Sequence record: OQ561750 | Length of the DNA: 64,000 bases | Strand: one strand, 5' to 3' | Origin: Escherichia phage LHE83 | In this document: positions 50,488-58,251 of the stretch, one piece after another | Numbering within the stretch: the first letter of the stretch is position 1 | Layout: every line of letters starts with the position of its first letter | The notes under the pieces: generated by a model | The model's input: only the letters and a program-made list of their open reading frames with translations | Databases searched by the model: none | Told to the model about the DNA's origin: nothing | Translations under genes and position numbers: made by a program

Positions 50488-50520
50488 GTTTACTTCTCCT
50501 CATGACATGTTATTATCTAC
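50488..50520 (+). promoter_or_regulatory. early promoter cassette
   Basis: GTTTAC...TGTTATTATCTACCCTATCAAC; CTCCTCATG/CATGAGGAG inverted repeat includes the Shine-Dalgarno. Confidence 0.55.
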
Positions 50521-50543
50521 CCTATCAACATGAGGAGAACAAA

Positions 50544-51053
50544 ATGAAAATTTATCGAGTCGAGTCATCGTTCAGTATCTTAGATAACAGCGATGTTATA
50601 GCAATCACTCACCAACAGTGCCGCCAATTAACACCGTATAGAGGCTCGTTTGATGAATGGAGCGAAGGTTGGTTATTAGAAGTAGGTTTCGACAGACCCA
50701 ATTTTAGGCACCACCATACCAATAATAAAAATATTCCGCTACCAGGTCAAGACAAGTTGTTGGTGGAAAATTCTAATAAAAGCATTAGAACTAAGTGGAA
50801 CCAGCCTGATTATGAAGGCTGTGATGATTATATTCCAGGTTGGTTTGTTAATCTCTACCATTTTGCTTTTGCCAGTGAGTATGATATGATGCGCTGGTTC
50901 ACTCGTGAAGAGCGTGAAGAATTATCTTCTAAAGGATTCTATCTTGCCGTTTACGAAATCCCTGAAGATGAGGTTGTCATTGGTGGCCGCCAAGTAATGT
51001 TCCGCAAATCCCATGCTGAACTCGTAGATTTTATTGAATTGAGAACAATATGA
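50544..51053 (+). CDS. hypothetical protein
   Basis: ATG after GAGGAGAAC Shine-Dalgarno; track start 50502 lies inside the promoter. Confidence 0.5.
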   Translation: MKIYRVESSFSILDNSDVIAITHQQCRQLTPYRGSFDEWSEGWLLEVGFDRPNFRHHHTNNKNIPLPGQDKLLVENSNKSIRTKWNQPDYEGCDDYIPGWFVNLYHFAFASEYDMMRWFTREEREELSSKGFYLAVYEIPEDEVVIGGRQVMFRKSHAELVDFIELRTI

Positions 51054-51598
51054 AATTTAATTACAACCCTAAATACACCCCGAATCCGGCAGCTAAACTG
51101 ATTGATTTTGATGTTTTAAGCACTTATGTATGCCCTGTTAAACCACTGGAAATTAAGGAACCTGCTATGAATACTCAGACTATCGAAATCGGCAAAACCT
51201 ACAAACTGGTTGAACCTGAAATTAAAACTAAGGCCTTGATTTCCGGCCATAAAACCCTGACTGATGTTTTTGGTGAAGGCGAATTTATTGTTGAAGAATT
51301 TGCCAAAAGTGAGTGGTTCTCTAAAGCCTATATTCTCCACGGCCGTCGTTTAGACAATAACAAAATTGAGCAAACCCTGGTTTATGAAGATGAGTTCATC
51401 CTGTTCCAAGAAGTTGAAGAACAAGACCCTACCGACCTTCTAACTCGTGCTGTGTCTATCCGTCGTCCTTTTGATAATCCTATCTGTGGATGGGTAACAG
51501 ACCAGTGGGTTGAAGACGGTGTTGAGCTGCTGAACGTTGTACATGCTGGTGATTTTAGCGTAGTACCTCGTAGTGCAGTGGTTAATGTATTGAATTAG
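51050..51598 (+). CDS. hypothetical protein (tandem paralog A)
   Basis: ORF track; C-terminal TDQWVEDGVELLNVV shared with the next gene. Confidence 0.55.
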   Translation: MKFNYNPKYTPNPAAKLIDFDVLSTYVCPVKPLEIKEPAMNTQTIEIGKTYKLVEPEIKTKALISGHKTLTDVFGEGEFIVEEFAKSEWFSKAYILHGRRLDNNKIEQTLVYEDEFILFQEVEEQDPTDLLTRAVSIRRPFDNPICGWVTDQWVEDGVELLNVVHAGDFSVVPRSAVVNVLN

Positions 51599-51600
51599 TA

Positions 51601-51630
51601 GTTTACTTTATCGAGAGCCATGTTATAATG
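51601..51630 (+). promoter_or_regulatory. early promoter
   Basis: GTTTAC then 17 nt then TATAAT; GAGAGCCAT/ATGGCTCTC inverted repeat. Confidence 0.55.
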
Positions 51631-51671
51631 GCTCTCATGGAGAATAAACTTATTAACCAAGAGAGAAAATT

Positions 51672-52223
51672 ATGATTACTATCGGTGAAATTGTTCGTGT
51701 ATCCAAAGAATCTCGCTCAAAAGCCGCAGGTCGTTTTGTTGAAGTTGCAGGTATTCGTACTAATTTAGTAGGCGGAATTAAAGAAGTTAAAGTGCGTATT
51801 ATTCCTAAAAATGGCCATACCGAAACCGAATTTGCCTATGTGCATCCTAAATTCTTGGAATCGACTGAATTTACTGGACACATCGCTCCTGTAGTTGAAG
51901 AAGTTGAATCCCATGATGGGTATGTATGTGAAAGCAATGATATCCGTGGCGTAGTAGCTCAAGACGTTGAAACTATTGACCAATCTCATGTTGGTGTTGA
52001 TTTCAAATGGAAATTAGGTAAAGGTGTCTTTTTCGTTTCACCTAAACCGTTTGAATACAATTGCAAGTATGGCCCGACTTATGAAACCACTAGTATGTCC
52101 GGTTACATCACAGACCAATGGGTTGAAGAAGGTGTTAAGCTGTATAACATCGTGTTCCTTGGCACCTTTAAAGTAGTTCCTGAAAGTTTTATTGTTGAGT
52201 ACGCTGATATTCATTTTGCATAA
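51672..52223 (+). CDS. hypothetical protein (tandem paralog B)
   Basis: ORF track; C-terminal TDQWVEEGVKLYNIV. Confidence 0.55.
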   Translation: MITIGEIVRVSKESRSKAAGRFVEVAGIRTNLVGGIKEVKVRIIPKNGHTETEFAYVHPKFLESTEFTGHIAPVVEEVESHDGYVCESNDIRGVVAQDVETIDQSHVGVDFKWKLGKGVFFVSPKPFEYNCKYGPTYETTSMSGYITDQWVEEGVKLYNIVFLGTFKVVPESFIVEYADIHFA

Positions 52224-52514: not shown

Positions 52515-52911
52515 TGAAGCTAAATTTGAAGCCGGTAAATGGTACTATTTTAAAGATGAGGCGGCCGAAGCTGAATTCCGTCGTAGAGATATCAATAATA
52601 TTGTAGCCGATGTTATTATTGAAGGTGAAGGTTTTTCCCCGGTTAAAATTTCAAATGGATGTGTAATCAACTTCGACCTGGTTTACGGCGATAATAAAGA
52701 TATGGTTATATACGCTAGTGAGAGGAAATTTTTTACCGAAATGGTTGAAGTTGAGTGCGACGAAGAATTGGATGAAGACCGTGATTATGGCTACGATGAT
52801 AGTGATGATCTGTCCGAACTAAGTGATTTCCCTTTGACTAAAATCACTATCTCTAATAATTCTGAAGCCTGGTCAGTTTACCAGATGTTGAAAGCTCACT
52901 TTAAGGAATAA
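52507..52911 (+). CDS. hypothetical acidic protein
   Basis: Internal ATG after AGGAGA Shine-Dalgarno of track ORF 52414. Confidence 0.5.
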   Translation: MSNEAKFEAGKWYYFKDEAAEAEFRRRDINNIVADVIIEGEGFSPVKISNGCVINFDLVYGDNKDMVIYASERKFFTEMVEVECDEELDEDRDYGYDDSDDLSELSDFPLTKITISNNSEAWSVYQMLKAHFKE

Positions 52912-52912
52912 T

Positions 52913-53089
52913 ATGCCACTTTATGATTACAAATGCCAATCTGAAGACTGTGCAAAAGAATACGAAAAAATCAAGAAAATCTCTGAAAGAGATAATGATG
53001 TTTGTCCTGATTGCCATCGGCTGGCTGTTCGGTTAGTCTCGGCTCCTAAACATGTTAATGGCGGTTTTTACGACCTGCTGACTAAGTGA
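52913..53089 (+). CDS. FmdB-type zinc-ribbon protein (58 aa)
   Basis: Read by eye; MPLYDYKCQSEDC...CPDCH pattern; AAGGAA Shine-Dalgarno. Confidence 0.5.
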   Translation: MPLYDYKCQSEDCAKEYEKIKKISERDNDVCPDCHRLAVRLVSAPKHVNGGFYDLLTK

Positions 53090-53095
53090 GAAATT

Positions 53096-53356
53096 ATGAA
53101 ATATATTAATCGTTCTATTGCAGCTCTCGTATTAGCAGTTTCTTTGGTTGGATGTACTGATGCCGATAATGCTACCCGTGTATTGGATGCAAATGGCTAC
53201 GAACAAATCCAAATCACAGGATACAACCTATTTGGCTGCTCTGAAGATGATTTCCAACGTACAGGCTTTATTGCTGTGGGTCCGACAGGTAAAAGGGTTG
53301 AAGGAACTGTTTGTTCTGGATTATTCTTTAAAAAGTCGACCATTCGATTTGATTAA
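53096..53356 (+). CDS. hypothetical lipoprotein
   Basis: Signal peptide plus LVGC lipobox. Confidence 0.55.
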   Translation: MKYINRSIAALVLAVSLVGCTDADNATRVLDANGYEQIQITGYNLFGCSEDDFQRTGFIAVGPTGKRVEGTVCSGLFFKKSTIRFD

Positions 53357-53373
53357 GGGCTTCGGCCCTTTTA
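53355..53373 (+). terminator. rho-independent terminator
   Basis: GGGC-TTCG-GCCC followed by TTTTAT. Confidence 0.5.
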
Positions 53374-53422
53374 TGCTTTAAGTGAAATGGGATAATATTC
53401 TCCTACTACATGAGGAAATAAC

Positions 53423-55240
53423 ATGATTAAGAATGAAATTAAAGTACTGTCCGACATTGAACATATCAAAAAACGTAGTGGGATGTATATTGGCTCAAGT
53501 GCTAATGAAGCTCACGGTCGATTCCTGTTTGGTAATTTTACACAGGTAAACTATGTTCCTGGACTGGTTAAATTAATTGATGAAATCATTGATAACTCTG
53601 TCGATGAAGCTATTCGTACCAATTTTAAATTCGCAAATAAAATTGATGTTCAAATTAAGAATAACCAGGTTTCAGTTTCTGATAATGGTCGTGGTATTCC
53701 ACAAGCAATGGTCACCGACCAAAATGGTGAACAGATTCCAGGTCCTGTAGCTGCATGGACTATTCCAAAGGCAGGTGGTAACTTTGGAGATGACGCTGAG
53801 CGTAAGACAGGCGGCATGAATGGTGTCGGTAGTAGTTTAACTAATATCTTCTCTGTTTTGTTCACCGGCATCACCTCTGATGGTGAGAATGAGATTACTG
53901 TTAACTGTTCAAACGGAATGGAAAACAAAGGTTGGTCTACTAAGAAATCTAAAGGTAAGGGTACTTCGGTTATATTCACCCCAGACTTTAATCATTTCGA
54001 AGAAAATAGCCTGTCACAAATTTATCTGGATATTACATTAGACCGATTGCAAACTCTGGCCGTAGTTTATCCTGATATTCAATTTACTTTTAATGGTAAA
54101 AAAGTAGATGGCAACTTTAAAAAGTATGCTAAGCAATTTGGTGAAGACTTTGTAATCCAAGAAACCGATAATGTTTCGATGGCATTTACTCCTTCTCCGG
54201 ATGGATTCCGTCAACTGACTTATGTAAACAATATCCACACCAAGAATGGTGGCCACCACGTTGAATGTGTATTCGATGATATTTGTGAACACCTTCTGCC
54301 AGGCATTAAAAAGAAATACCGTGGAATTGAAGTAACTAAAGCTCGTGTTAAAGAATGCCTTACGATGGTGATGTTCATTCGTGATATGAGCAACATGCGT
54401 TTTGATTCACAGACTAAAGAACGTTTGACCTCTCCTTTTGGTGAGATTCGCAATCATATCCAAATTGATGCTAAGAAAATTGCTCAAGCCATTCTTAAAG
54501 TTGATGGGTTGATTATGCCTATCGTTGAAGCTGCTTTAGCACGTAAATTAGCAGCTGAAAAGGCTGCCGAAACTAAAGCCGCTAAGAAAGCTTCTAAAGC
54601 CAAGGTCCATAAGCATATTAAAGCTAACCTATACGGCAAAGATGCTGATACAACCCTGTTCCTAACCGAAGGTGATTCCGCTATGGGTCCTTTCATTGAA
54701 GTTCGTAATAAAGACCTTCAAGGTGGTTACCCATTGCGTGGTAAGGTTATGAATACCTGGGGAATGACAGCAACAGATATCATGAAGAACAAGGAACTAT
54801 TTGATATCTGTGCAATCACTGGATTGGTTATTGGTGAACCCGCAGATAAAACCAACTATCGTAATATTGCTATTATGACCGATGCCGATGTGGATGGTAC
54901 TGGTTCGATTTATCCATCATTGCTAGCCTTCTTTAGTCAATGGCCCGAATTGTTCGAACAAGGCCGAGTACGGTTCTGTAAAACTCCGGTGATTATTGCT
55001 CAGGTTGGTAAAGAACAGGAATGGTTCTATGATGTGCCTAGTTATACCAAAGCTAAGGACTCTCTACCAAAACACTCCATTCGTTATATCAAAGGACTGG
55101 GTTCTCTTGAGAAGGCTGAATACCGTCGAATGATTCAAGACCCTAAATTTGATGTGGTTCAATTACCTGAAGATTGGAAAGAACAGTTCGAAATGCTCCT
55201 TGGTAATGACCCACAACTCCGTAAGGCCTGGATGTCGTAA
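53423..55240 (+). CDS. 39: DNA topoisomerase II large subunit gp39, full length (GyrB-like; unsplit 39+60)
   Basis: 605 aa continuous ORF; GHKL ATPase motifs (IDNSVDEA, GMNGVGSS) and TOPRIM (EGDSA); C-terminal part corresponds to T4 gp60. Confidence 0.9.
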   Translation: MIKNEIKVLSDIEHIKKRSGMYIGSSANEAHGRFLFGNFTQVNYVPGLVKLIDEIIDNSVDEAIRTNFKFANKIDVQIKNNQVSVSDNGRGIPQAMVTDQNGEQIPGPVAAWTIPKAGGNFGDDAERKTGGMNGVGSSLTNIFSVLFTGITSDGENEITVNCSNGMENKGWSTKKSKGKGTSVIFTPDFNHFEENSLSQIYLDITLDRLQTLAVVYPDIQFTFNGKKVDGNFKKYAKQFGEDFVIQETDNVSMAFTPSPDGFRQLTYVNNIHTKNGGHHVECVFDDICEHLLPGIKKKYRGIEVTKARVKECLTMVMFIRDMSNMRFDSQTKERLTSPFGEIRNHIQIDAKKIAQAILKVDGLIMPIVEAALARKLAAEKAAETKAAKKASKAKVHKHIKANLYGKDADTTLFLTEGDSAMGPFIEVRNKDLQGGYPLRGKVMNTWGMTATDIMKNKELFDICAITGLVIGEPADKTNYRNIAIMTDADVDGTGSIYPSLLAFFSQWPELFEQGRVRFCKTPVIIAQVGKEQEWFYDVPSYTKAKDSLPKHSIRYIKGLGSLEKAEYRRMIQDPKFDVVQLPEDWKEQFEMLLGNDPQLRKAWMS

Positions 55241-55284
55241 TAAATATGTATGGTACTAATTGGTGCCATACAAAAGGAGACTTT

Positions 55285-55446
55285 ATGAGAAAGTACTGGG
55301 TTACGCTCGTCACCGGTGAATACGGTTATATCTGGACTGATACTAGACCTCAGTTTGCAGAATACGTGACTATTACAGTCGAGACATGGGACGGCGAAGT
55401 TTACCAAACCCGCGGACAAGTCTATAAGGTCGATTCAAGTAACTAA
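55285..55446 (+). CDS. hypothetical small protein
   Basis: Internal ATG after AAGGAG Shine-Dalgarno of track ORF 55246. Confidence 0.45.
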   Translation: MRKYWVTLVTGEYGYIWTDTRPQFAEYVTITVETWDGEVYQTRGQVYKVDSSN

Positions 55447-55447
55447 T

Positions 55448-55467
55448 AAGGGCCTTCGGGCCCTTTT
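55448..55467 (+). terminator. rho-independent terminator
   Basis: AAGGGCC-TTCG-GGCCCTT followed by TT. Confidence 0.55.
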
Positions 55468-55471
55468 CGGG

Positions 55472-55500
55472 GTTTACAACTGATTAAAAGTATGATACGA
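55472..55500 (+). promoter_or_regulatory. early promoter
   Basis: GTTTAC then downstream TATGATACGAT. Confidence 0.45.
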
Positions 55501-55519
55501 TTCTCTAAGAGGTGAGAAT

Positions 55520-55843
55520 ATGATTATGCAAGATAACAGTATAGTGAACACTGACAACCTGGCTCTATCCTTTATGGAAGCAGCCATTCGTAACTGTAAG
55601 GACGAAGGAGTAGTGACTACAAGCGGTAAGGGACTTGAATACCTTAAGGCTGTAAAATCTATTGCCTTAAAGATTAAAGATAACCAGGCGCTCTCTCCTG
55701 TTGTCCAGGAAAAGGTTTTAGAGATAATGTATCGCCACAGAGAGCACAAAAGTACAATAGGTTCTATGAGAAGAATTCTGGCTGAACTAGGTTCTACCAG
55801 AGAATATGTTCAACATGAGGTAGTTAAAAATGACAAACTTTAA
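55520..55843 (+). CDS. hypothetical protein
   Basis: ORF track. Confidence 0.5.
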   Translation: MIMQDNSIVNTDNLALSFMEAAIRNCKDEGVVTTSGKGLEYLKAVKSIALKIKDNQALSPVVQEKVLEIMYRHREHKSTIGSMRRILAELGSTREYVQHEVVKNDKL

Positions 55844-56033
55844 AGTGAATATTGATTTGTTTGATAAAGCTGTTCATAAAGAATTCCGGTTAATCCAGCG
55901 ATTTTTTGATATCAATGCAGCTGAGGATTTTAAAGAACGCTTTAAAGAAATCAGATATAAAATACTCAACGACATCGCTACTAAGGACGAGCTCCTTGAA
56001 GTGGCAAATATTTTCAAACGTAACCTGAATTGA
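55830..56033 (+). CDS. hypothetical protein
   Basis: ORF track; overlaps the upstream 3' end. Confidence 0.5.
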   Translation: MTNFKVNIDLFDKAVHKEFRLIQRFFDINAAEDFKERFKEIRYKILNDIATKDELLEVANIFKRNLN

Positions 56034-56040
56034 GAAAAAT

Positions 56041-58251
56041 ATGATTATTGAAACCGAAAAAGAACAAATCATTGGTAATGGTGCTAAGTCCACAGGCTTT
56101 ACTATCCAGGCATCGCCTAAGGTCTTTAAAATTTTGTCATCAGACCTTTATAGTAATAAAGTACGTGCTGTAGTACGTGAACTAATTACCAACATGATTG
56201 ATGCCCATATTCTGAATGGTAATAAAGAACGTTGGAAAGTACAGGTCCCTGGTAAACTGGACCCTCGTTTCGTGTGTCGTGATTTCGGTCCGGGTATGAG
56301 TGATTTCCAAATTCGTGGTGATGAAAACGAAACAGGTTTGTACAACTCTTATTTCGCATCATCCAAAACGGCTTCTAATGATTTCATCGGCGGCTTTGGC
56401 CTTGGTTCAAAATCTCCGTTCAGTTATACCGAAACGTTTAATATCACCTCATGGCACAATGGCGAAGTTCGCGGTTATGTAGCATATATGGATGGTGATG
56501 GCCCGCAGATTAAACCTACTTTCGTAGAACCTATGCAGCCAGGTGATAAAACAGGTATCGAAATCACGGTTCCTGTTGATGAAGAAGATTTCCGTAAGTT
56601 TGAAACTGAAGTTCGTTATATCATGCGGCCTTTCATTGGTCTTGGTGATGTAGACGGTGTTGAAGTTGATTATTTCCCTGAATTTGACGATTACCATCCT
56701 GTAACCACTACAAATTATGGCAGCTTCGAACGTTCAGGACTTTATGCAGTTTATGGTGGTATTGTTTATCCATTGGATTCCGCCTATAATAAAGGCACGT
56801 GGATGCGTACTCGCCATGATGTAGTTTATATTAAGTTCCCTATGGGTTCACTGGATATTGCTCCTTCTCGTGAAGTGTTGTCTCTTGATAAACGTACGAT
56901 GGAAAATATTGCAACCCGTATCGAAGCACTGGACGCAGTGGTCTTTAAAAACGATACACAGGAATGGGTTGAATCTGATAATCCACGCCATGTTTATCGT
57001 GACCTTTCTAACCTTGGTTACAGTGCTCGTGACTATCTTACCAAAAAAGGTGGAACTAGCCTGTTTACTACAGAAAAATTGACATATGAGAAATTATACC
57101 AGCGTTATACCCTTCAAAACGACCTTATTAATTTAGGTGTGGTTTACGAAGTCGTTTCAGACCCACGTTTGAAACGAATTAAGTCAAGTGGTAATACTTC
57201 TTCGGTAGCAGGACTTAGTAATTTATTAGGCATTAATAAGAAAGAAATCCATGTTGTTTATGATGATGAAAAAGGTCGTGTGCCATTAGTTCGAGGTCTT
57301 TGGGCTCTGGCAATGGACAACAGTGCTTCGGCTAAGAAAATTGTTAAAGAGAACAATATTCCTAAATACGGAACTGACCTTATTTTTGTCGACCCAAATT
57401 CAATGTTGCAAATGCAACAACTTGAAAAGGTTAAAGAACTTTTTAAAGGTGACACAATTCATTTTTATAAAGTCTCTGAACTGAATAAAATTGTTAAGCC
57501 ATGGATTCCGGTTACTGTCCGTTCATCAGAACCGCGTCCTAAAACACCGAGTGCTTATCGTTGGTTCATTAAAGACGGGCGCTGGCAACAAGAGACCATG
57601 TATTTGACTGCTGCCGAAGCAGAAGAAATTACAGGTTATGTTCTGTTTGGCAGTCGTTCTGATATTATGGGAATGGATGAAGCTTATGGTATCTTTGACA
57701 TCAATACCATTACCATGTGTCGTATGGCTAATTTGATTGGTGCTACCGAATTCCATATCATTCGCCCTCAGATTGCCAAAAAGATTAAAAAGTTAGGCCA
57801 ATGCGAATGCTTGATGGAAGCTACATTAGAAGCTTATGCTGAAGCCTTAGACGCGGTAGATGTTGATGACTACCTTGGTAGCAATACTCGAGCTCGGTAT
57901 TACCTTGAAATCATTGCTAAGTTCCCTCAGCTTAATTTCATGACCAAGTATTTCAGTGATAAGCCGGTAACTGAAGCATATACTCGTCTGAGTAATTTCT
58001 ATGATATATTCCGTTATATGAATTTCCATGGTTATATCACTGATGATAAGCTTTCCGTTATCAAGAAAATTTGTAACAATACTTTTTTTAAGTTGACTGA
58101 TAATGCTTCAAGCAACAATGATAAAATGACTGTACAGTTTGAATCTGATTACCATTTAGTTTCGGACTACATGTATCGTCGTGGAACATCCATTACCGAG
58201 GCTTCTGTAGCTCAAATTGTTAAATTCATGAAAGCCGTGGAAGCGGCTTAA
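56041..58251 (+). CDS. rIIA: rIIA protein (GHKL-ATPase-like membrane-associated protein)
   Basis: 736 aa; MIIETEKE...VRELITNMIDAH, FVCRDFGPGMSDF, GGFGLGSKSPFSY as T4 rIIA. Confidence 0.9.
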   Translation: MIIETEKEQIIGNGAKSTGFTIQASPKVFKILSSDLYSNKVRAVVRELITNMIDAHILNGNKERWKVQVPGKLDPRFVCRDFGPGMSDFQIRGDENETGLYNSYFASSKTASNDFIGGFGLGSKSPFSYTETFNITSWHNGEVRGYVAYMDGDGPQIKPTFVEPMQPGDKTGIEITVPVDEEDFRKFETEVRYIMRPFIGLGDVDGVEVDYFPEFDDYHPVTTTNYGSFERSGLYAVYGGIVYPLDSAYNKGTWMRTRHDVVYIKFPMGSLDIAPSREVLSLDKRTMENIATRIEALDAVVFKNDTQEWVESDNPRHVYRDLSNLGYSARDYLTKKGGTSLFTTEKLTYEKLYQRYTLQNDLINLGVVYEVVSDPRLKRIKSSGNTSSVAGLSNLLGINKKEIHVVYDDEKGRVPLVRGLWALAMDNSASAKKIVKENNIPKYGTDLIFVDPNSMLQMQQLEKVKELFKGDTIHFYKVSELNKIVKPWIPVTVRSSEPRPKTPSAYRWFIKDGRWQQETMYLTAAEAEEITGYVLFGSRSDIMGMDEAYGIFDINTITMCRMANLIGATEFHIIRPQIAKKIKKLGQCECLMEATLEAYAEALDAVDVDDYLGSNTRARYYLEIIAKFPQLNFMTKYFSDKPVTEAYTRLSNFYDIFRYMNFHGYITDDKLSVIKKICNNTFFKLTDNASSNNDKMTVQFESDYHLVSDYMYRRGTSITEASVAQIVKFMKAVEAA

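Follow-up and report, generated by a model that had tools for sequence, protein, structure and literature searches.

Introduction

The large subunit of the type II DNA topoisomerase of bacteriophage T4 is split between the genes 39 and 60. The split was caused by a homing endonuclease element of about 1.1 kb, MobA, which brings a C-terminal extension (CTE), an N-terminal extension (NTE), a replacement patch termed "homR" and a bypass cassette (Manning and Atkins, 2022, bioRxiv 10.1101/2022.08.31.505936). In the same study the uninterrupted topoisomerase genes were termed the "parental" state, and within each clade studied the homR of the element shared 67–81% identity with the parental DNA. 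It was also reported that in some Aeromonas phages (clade 7) a re-fused gene exists, which still contains insertions homologous to the CTE and the NTE at the MobA site (Manning and Atkins, 2022). Edgell et al. (PMC2988022) described that the insertion of mobA split the topoisomerase gene "as compared to related phage".

In nature, the enzyme of the phages T2 and T6 consists of two kinds of subunit, an unsplit gp39 and gp52 (PMC11461880). The T6 proteins form an A2B2 heterotetramer that relaxes DNA and the structure of which has been solved by cryo-EM, and ATP-dependent relaxation or decatenation was reported for the enzymes of both T6 and T4. An insertion of about 70 aa that is specific to T4 is positioned outside of the TOPRIM domain and leaves the activity unaffected. 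Gyrase and topoisomerase IV have additional CTDs (PMC11461880). Here, the topoisomerase locus of Escherichia phage LHE83 (OQ561750) is compared with these systems. The analysis covered a window of 64,000 nucleotides, i.e., the whole stretch of DNA that was available, and all coordinates refer to this window.

Results

A single open reading frame encodes a B-type subunit with all catalytic signatures

The listing and translation of open reading frames revealed an ORF of 605 codons, which runs from an ATG to a stop codon without any in-frame stop (Table 1). A first-pass annotation had described it as one continuous gene that covers the ATPase and the TOPRIM regions through to the C-terminus, and the domain analysis led to the same result. 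The protein starts with MIKNEIK, which is identical to the N-termini of gp39 of T4 and T6, and PHROG 543 ("DNA topoisomerase II large subunit") spans residues 1–605 with an E-value of 3.7e-281.

Table 1. Features of the topoisomerase locus of phage LHE83 and the evidence for them.
Feature	Coordinates	Strand	Evidence
Gene 39 (unsplit, "60plus39" type), large (GyrB/ParE-like) subunit of DNA topoisomerase II, 605 aa	53423..55240	+	ORF, blastp, PHROG 543, PDB 8YLU, PSD9
Shine-Dalgarno motif GAGGA, 6 nt before the ATG of gene 39	53412..53416	+	read from sequence
GHKL ATPase domain, residues ~1–240 (limits approximate)	53423..54142	+	Pfam HATPase_c and motifs
Transducer domain, residues 250–385, QTK loop at residue 330	54170..54577	+	Pfam DNA_gyraseB and motif
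TOPRIM domain, residues 411–519	54653..54979	+	Pfam Toprim (below cut-off), motifs, full-length alignment to solved T6/T4 subunits
C-terminal region after TOPRIM, residues 521–605, homology to the last two thirds of T4 gp60	54983..55237	+	Pfam, T4 gp60 alignment, PHROG 7229
Codon 474 (GCA, Ala), homology to T4 gene 39 ends and homology to gene 60 begins	54842..54844	+	blastp ends, global alignment, codon table vs. T6/T4
Codons 492–493 (GGT ACT, Gly-Thr), counterparts of codons 46/47 of T4 gene 60, uninterrupted	54896..54901	+	codon comparison
rIIA.1	55830..56033	+	PF24210
rIIA	56041..58251	+	
Gene 52, topoisomerase II medium (GyrA/ParC-like, breakage-reunion) subunit, 459 aa	62598..63977	+	Pfam DNA_topoisoIV 1.2e-75, PHROG 551 4.2e-209

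At the N-terminal side Pfam HATPase_c matched residues 47–189 (2.4e-10; 41.3 bits, cut-off 26.4). The protein was searched for the patterns of the GHKL fold, namely the N-box, G1 (DxGxG) and G2 (GxxGxG), and all three ATP-binding motifs were found (EIIDNSVDE at 54 with E54/N58, DNGRG at 87 and GMNGVG at 131). The transducer was recognized by Pfam DNA_gyraseB at residues 250–385 (2.7e-13; 50.2 bits, cut-off 27), and it contains the lysine of the QTK loop. The matches to Toprim at residues 411–519 (0.0032; 18 bits, curated cut-off 23.1) and to TOPRIM_C at residues 521–583 (2.7e-4) were both below the curated cut-offs, which was taken to reflect the divergence of the phage family. These low scores are offset by the TOPRIM motifs, i.e., the catalytic glutamate in EGDSA at 416, PLRGK at 437 and the acidic cluster DADVDG (DxDxD) at 487–492, and by the alignment of the full-length protein to solved structures, in which the TOPRIM region aligns with the T6 subunit without a gap. 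PHROG 7229 matched residues 450–605 (6e-61). All catalytic signatures that are expected for the B subunit of a type IIA topoisomerase are present in the 605-aa protein.

Homology extends over the full length both to gp39 of T6 and to gp39 plus gp60 of T4. The closest solved structure is chain C of PDB 8YLU, the T6 gp39 (residues 1–605 vs. 1–604, 1086 bits), followed by an engineered fusion of T4 gp39 and gp60 (8YO3), and both phage subunits scored above 1000 bits. Human TOP2A/B and yeast Top2 came next (2.5e-58 to 2.9e-48), before ParE (4.7e-42) and GyrB (2.6e-38). The N-terminal half of eukaryotic topoisomerase II, ParE and GyrB share the GHKL ATPase-transducer-TOPRIM architecture with the LHE83 protein, but at far lower similarity (E-values from 1e-58 to 1e-38). 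In eukaryotic topoisomerase II the B and A parts are fused in one chain, and E. coli GyrB has an extra insertion. Gyrase introduces supercoils, which phage enzymes of the T4 type are not known to do.

This ranking bears on the idea that the gene might be a captured bacterial gyrB or parE, the product of which would act as the B subunit of gyrase or topoisomerase IV. The order of the domains is indeed that of GyrB/ParE, and two database records, OV876907 and OV877765, label the orthologue parE. However, the protein is closest to the phage enzymes and then to the eukaryotic ones, gene 39 lies near rIIA in a conserved T4-type synteny, and homologs are found in 1,910 phage records. Also the partner gp52, which is encoded in the same genome, is short with its 459 aa, while bacterial GyrA and ParC are much longer and have a C-terminal DNA-wrapping domain. 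Capture of a bacterial gene is therefore very improbable, and the protein is better regarded as a phage topoisomerase II large subunit. Orthologues in OV876907, OV877765, MK234886 and OQ446694 are variously labeled "parE: DNA topoisomerase 4 subunit B," "hypothetical protein" or "ATP-binding protein," which is an inconsistency of annotation and not a biological difference. The annotation should give one topoisomerase II large subunit of 605 aa, and not "ParE."

The two halves of the T4 subunit map head to tail onto the LHE83 protein

For the comparison with T4, gp39 (516 aa) and gp60 (160 aa, spliced over the annotated 50-nt bypass at 2803–2852) were rebuilt from NC_000866. With blastp, residues 1–473 of T4 gp39 matched residues 1–474 of the LHE83 protein with 77% identity and one gap of 1 aa, and residues 28–159 of gp60 matched residues 474–605 with 75% identity (E-value 1e-73). 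The two matches abut at residue 474 without a gap between them. The global alignment of T4 gp39 plus gp60 with the 605-aa protein contained a single gap, which is accounted for entirely by two T4-specific segments, the C-terminal extension of gp39 and the N-terminal extension of gp60. The first-pass proposal that this locus is in the unsplit state relative to genes 39 and 60 of T4 depended on a C-terminal part that is related to gp60, and this relationship was verified; the ORF is collinear with both T4 genes and has no insert.

In T4, about 1,000 bp of extra DNA lie at the position where codons 474 and 475 of LHE83 adjoin (counted from codon 474 of T4 gene 39 through codon 27 of gene 60). They encode a 43-aa extension of the C-terminus, a MobA remnant/gp60.1 and an extension of the N-terminus, none of which is present in LHE83. 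A second difference concerns the 50 nt that remain untranslated in T4 between the codons for Gly46 and Leu47 of gp60; this gap falls directly after the TOPRIM DxDxDG motif. The equivalent motif of LHE83 is DADVDG (487–492), and the codons 491–494 read GAT GGT / ACT GGT and are contiguous. The catalytic motifs are common to LHE83 gp39 and to T4 gp39 plus gp60, and, while the T4 topoisomerase has three kinds of subunit, the LHE83 enzyme should have two.

T6 gp39 is 78% identical to LHE83 gp39 and collinear with it except for one indel of 1 aa near residue 300, and the two genes correspond codon for codon and without a gap across residues 462–500, a region that spans both T4 interruption sites. 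Also in T6 and T2, gp39 is one polypeptide of 604–605 aa, which has the same domain order and motifs and pairs with gp52. On the DNA level, the Dhakavirus LHE83 and the Tequatrovirus T6 have diverged by about 26% in gene 39 and by 33% in the MobA target region (approximately 54842–54900). The latter is intact in LHE83 and is 67% identical to the T6 DNA, compared with 74% gene-wide.

Gene 39 contains no bypass signals

The first-pass annotation had reported that no bypass-like hairpin and no take-off or landing codons were seen by eye, and a motif search, a hexamer search and RNA folding gave the same result for gene 39. A GGA-plus-stop hexamer was absent from all frames of the ORF, and the take-off stem-loop motif of T4 had no match in the whole window when up to three mismatches were allowed. 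The predicted folding energy of the region 54830–54970 was −28.5 kcal/mol, compared with −30.6 ± 3.8 for shuffled sequences (z +0.55), and is thus not exceptional. A T4-type bypass cassette, i.e., an untranslated gap of about 50 nt with matched GGA take-off and landing codons, a stop codon after the take-off site and a stem-loop, was not found in the gene.

In principle, a cryptic frameshift or a bypass elsewhere in the ORF could make its continuity misleading. Nothing was found in favor of such recoding, and the missing in-frame stop, the missing hexamer, the lack of a hairpin motif and an alignment to T6 gp39 that is ungapped save for the indel near residue 300 all count against it, so that a hidden recoding event has to be regarded as extremely improbable and continuous translation of the 605 codons as the preferred reading.

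The locus carries no remnants of the MobA element

The T4 MobA fragment, gp60.1 and the intact MobA of HY03 (272 aa; NC_031047, 120686–121504) were used as tblastn queries, and none of them had a significant match in the 64 kb. The same was true for the T4 CTE and NTE, the best matches of which had E-values of 0.8 and 1.8, comprised only 10–14 aa and were located elsewhere. Over all queries of the MobA element the best E-values were 0.2–3.5, and all matches were outside of the junction region of gene 39. Within the window, neither the HNH homing endonuclease MobA nor a remnant of it was detected inside the topoisomerase gene, and the extensions that the element adds to the C-terminus of ORF1 and to the N-terminus of ORF2 are lacking as well; the alignment gap covers exactly those segments. 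On the DNA level, the T4 insert was matched only by the homR patch of 44 nt, which is 75% identical and located at 54854–54897.

Judged from these sequence comparisons, gene 39 of LHE83 is a parental-type allele that has no sign of a past insertion. A single ORF by itself fits both a never-split and a re-fused history, and re-fusion does occur, as exemplified by clade 7 of the Aeromonas phages (Manning and Atkins, 2022). It could thus be argued that a MobA element once split gene 39 in a "hit-and-run" manner and was later excised, restoring the single ORF. Yet re-fused genes keep CTE/NTE insertions. The LHE83 protein has a length of 605 aa like that of T6 and is gapless at residues 462–500, and the T4 extensions have no significant match in the window, so that a re-fusion can be rejected with little remaining doubt in favor of the parental allele. 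The absence of scars suggests that the gene was never invaded, although a perfectly precise loss, by recombination with a relative that the element had not entered, would not be visible in the sequence.

The target region of LHE83, intact and MobA-naive, might act as a natural recipient for homing of the MobA cassette during mixed infection, or it might be a naturally resistant allele; both are speculative and on balance rather doubtful. If the latter were true, the allele would help to define the recognition requirements of MobA. The database searches made here revealed no Dhakavirus that carries a MobA cassette. The primary paper on the nicking of T2 by MobA is reportedly that of Bonocora et al. 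from 2011.

The unsplit arrangement is the rule among phages

A tblastn search with the 605-aa protein revealed that in 1,767 of the 1,910 phage records with homologs, 80% or more of the protein is encoded at a single place. In contrast, a megablast search with the 1,000-bp insertion of T4 yielded only 43 records, and all of these copies were 95–100% identical to that of T4. Of 40 records that were sampled at even spacing, only HY03 and Campylobacter phage CP81 had the gene in two pieces, and in HY03 a homing endonuclease is annotated between the two topoisomerase ORFs.

The single-ORF arrangement already has a label, since the gene of Aeromonas phage 65 is named "60plus39"; like the LHE83 gene it is a single ORF over the gp39 and gp60 regions, but the identity is only about 42%. 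The fused Topo2L of Aeromonas clade 7 is likewise a single ORF, but it retains the CTE/NTE insertions that LHE83 lacks. The unsplit arrangement is the rule, T4 is the exception, and the arrangement was known before. Because the unsplit form is ancestral and is found in the majority of T4-like phages, gene 39 of LHE83 is not a noteworthy variant. Knowledge of the unsplit gene 39 dates back to the comparison of T2 and T6 with T4, the arrangement was re-described as "parental," and its T6 form was solved by cryo-EM. The significance of the LHE83 gene beyond its correct annotation is thus small, but the locus is a useful negative control, which has neither a bypass nor a homing endonuclease insertion.

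Proposed function of gp39 and gp52

Taken together, the ORF is almost certainly an intact, never-interrupted Dhakavirus gene 39, which encodes the whole B-type subunit of a phage type IIA topoisomerase, and no evidence against this reading was found. The MobA element would never have entered gene 39 of the LHE83 lineage, which would have left the gene unsplit. In T4 and a few relatives, genes 39 and 60 are the product of the split by this element, which also brought in the 50-nt bypass cassette. One chain of 605 aa combines the GHKL ATPase gate, the transducer with the QTK loop, the metal-binding TOPRIM domain and a C-terminal tail.

At an identity of 78% to T6 gp39, the LHE83 enzyme should work like the T6 enzyme. 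Together with gp52, which presumably bears the DNA-cleaving tyrosine of its family, gp39 would form a gp39(2)gp52(2) heterotetramer, and this enzyme would use ATP to move a DNA duplex through a double-strand break that is transiently opened in a second one. As shown for the enzymes of T6 and T2, this activity would relax and decatenate the phage DNA during replication. We infer the stoichiometry, the enzymatic activity and the role in replication from what is known about the family.

Conserved neighborhood of gene 39 in Dhakavirus genomes

Over the 3.1-kb locus, LHE83 shares 98.4% identity with Escherichia phage PSD2002 (Straboviridae; Tevenvirinae; Dhakavirus wg01) and 93–98% with QL01, WG01, MX01, IME08 and others. 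The same gene of 1818 nt is present in these Dhakavirus records and is annotated as topoisomerase II large subunit. The closest protein is that of phage PSD9 (99.8% identity), and the orthologues of PSD2002, PSD9, QL01, WG01 and IME08 differ from LHE83 gene 39 by point substitutions only. The Dhakavirus Escherichia phage 04086 (OR842557; 501–1111 of its locus record) has about 180 bp of extra DNA near gene 39, and its gene 39 is labeled only "hypothetical protein"; an interruption of gene 39 by this DNA was considered and rejected, because the DNA is located upstream and the gene is intact.

The gene order in LHE83 is a dexA-like exonuclease, MotB-like genes, cef, goF, 39.2 (zinc ribbon), the 39.1 position, 39, rIIA.1, rIIA and rIIB, and it agrees with the order of T4 and T6 when these are read from the other strand. 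The neighborhood of T6 is like that of LHE83 in having 39.1/39.2 upstream and rIIA.1 and rIIA downstream. A difference exists directly downstream of gene 39. The three small ORFs that had been noted there before rIIA in the first-pass annotation were recovered at 55246/55286–55446, 55520–55843 and 55830–56033. The third of these is rIIA.1, and the first two are conserved small genes (55286–55446, 53 aa, PHROG 4369; 55520–55843, 107 aa, DUF7367/PHROG 5382) that T6 does not have at this position. In T4 and T6 only about 55 nt separate the stop codon of the topoisomerase gene from rIIA.1. The start of the first small ORF is most likely the ATG at 55286 (53 aa) rather than that at 55246 (66 aa), because only the ATG at 55286 is preceded by AAGGAG, the PHROG aligns from residue 14 onward, and 53 aa are annotated in PSD2002.

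Two GC-rich hairpins with UUCG tetraloops flank gene 39 together with the first small ORF, and both are followed by a U-rich tract. The upstream hairpin is AAGGGC-UUCG-GCCCUU (53355–53370, plus strand, −9.3 kcal/mol, z −1.8), and the downstream one is AAGGGCC-UUCG-GGCCCUU (55448–55465, plus strand, −12.6 kcal/mol, z −1.4); they look like terminators or RNA-stabilizing elements. A promoter-like sequence, TTTACA-17-TACGAT, is located at 55473–55501 between the two small genes. About 25 nt upstream of the start of gene 39, TGCTTTA-12 nt-TAATAT was read by eye (53374–53398, plus strand), which we take to resemble the consensus of the T4 middle (MotA-dependent) promoters. In a promoter and terminator scan of the region 52800–56200 the counts were at chance level (10 vs. 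10.1; 2 vs. 1.9).

Further upstream, at the 39.1 position, an ORF of 86 aa (53096–53356, plus strand, PHROG 902) encodes a protein that begins with a lipoprotein-like signal (…LAVSLVGC…); T4 gp39.1 has 65 aa. At 50502–52223 (plus strand) three genes of about 183 aa are arranged in tandem, where T4 has one motB, and all three are annotated as "transcriptional regulator" in PSD2002. The first (50502–51053) had no Pfam match, the second (51050–51598) matched only the C-terminal end of MotB (8.9e-9), and the third (51672–52223) is a clear MotB homolog (PF17613, 6.4e-51).
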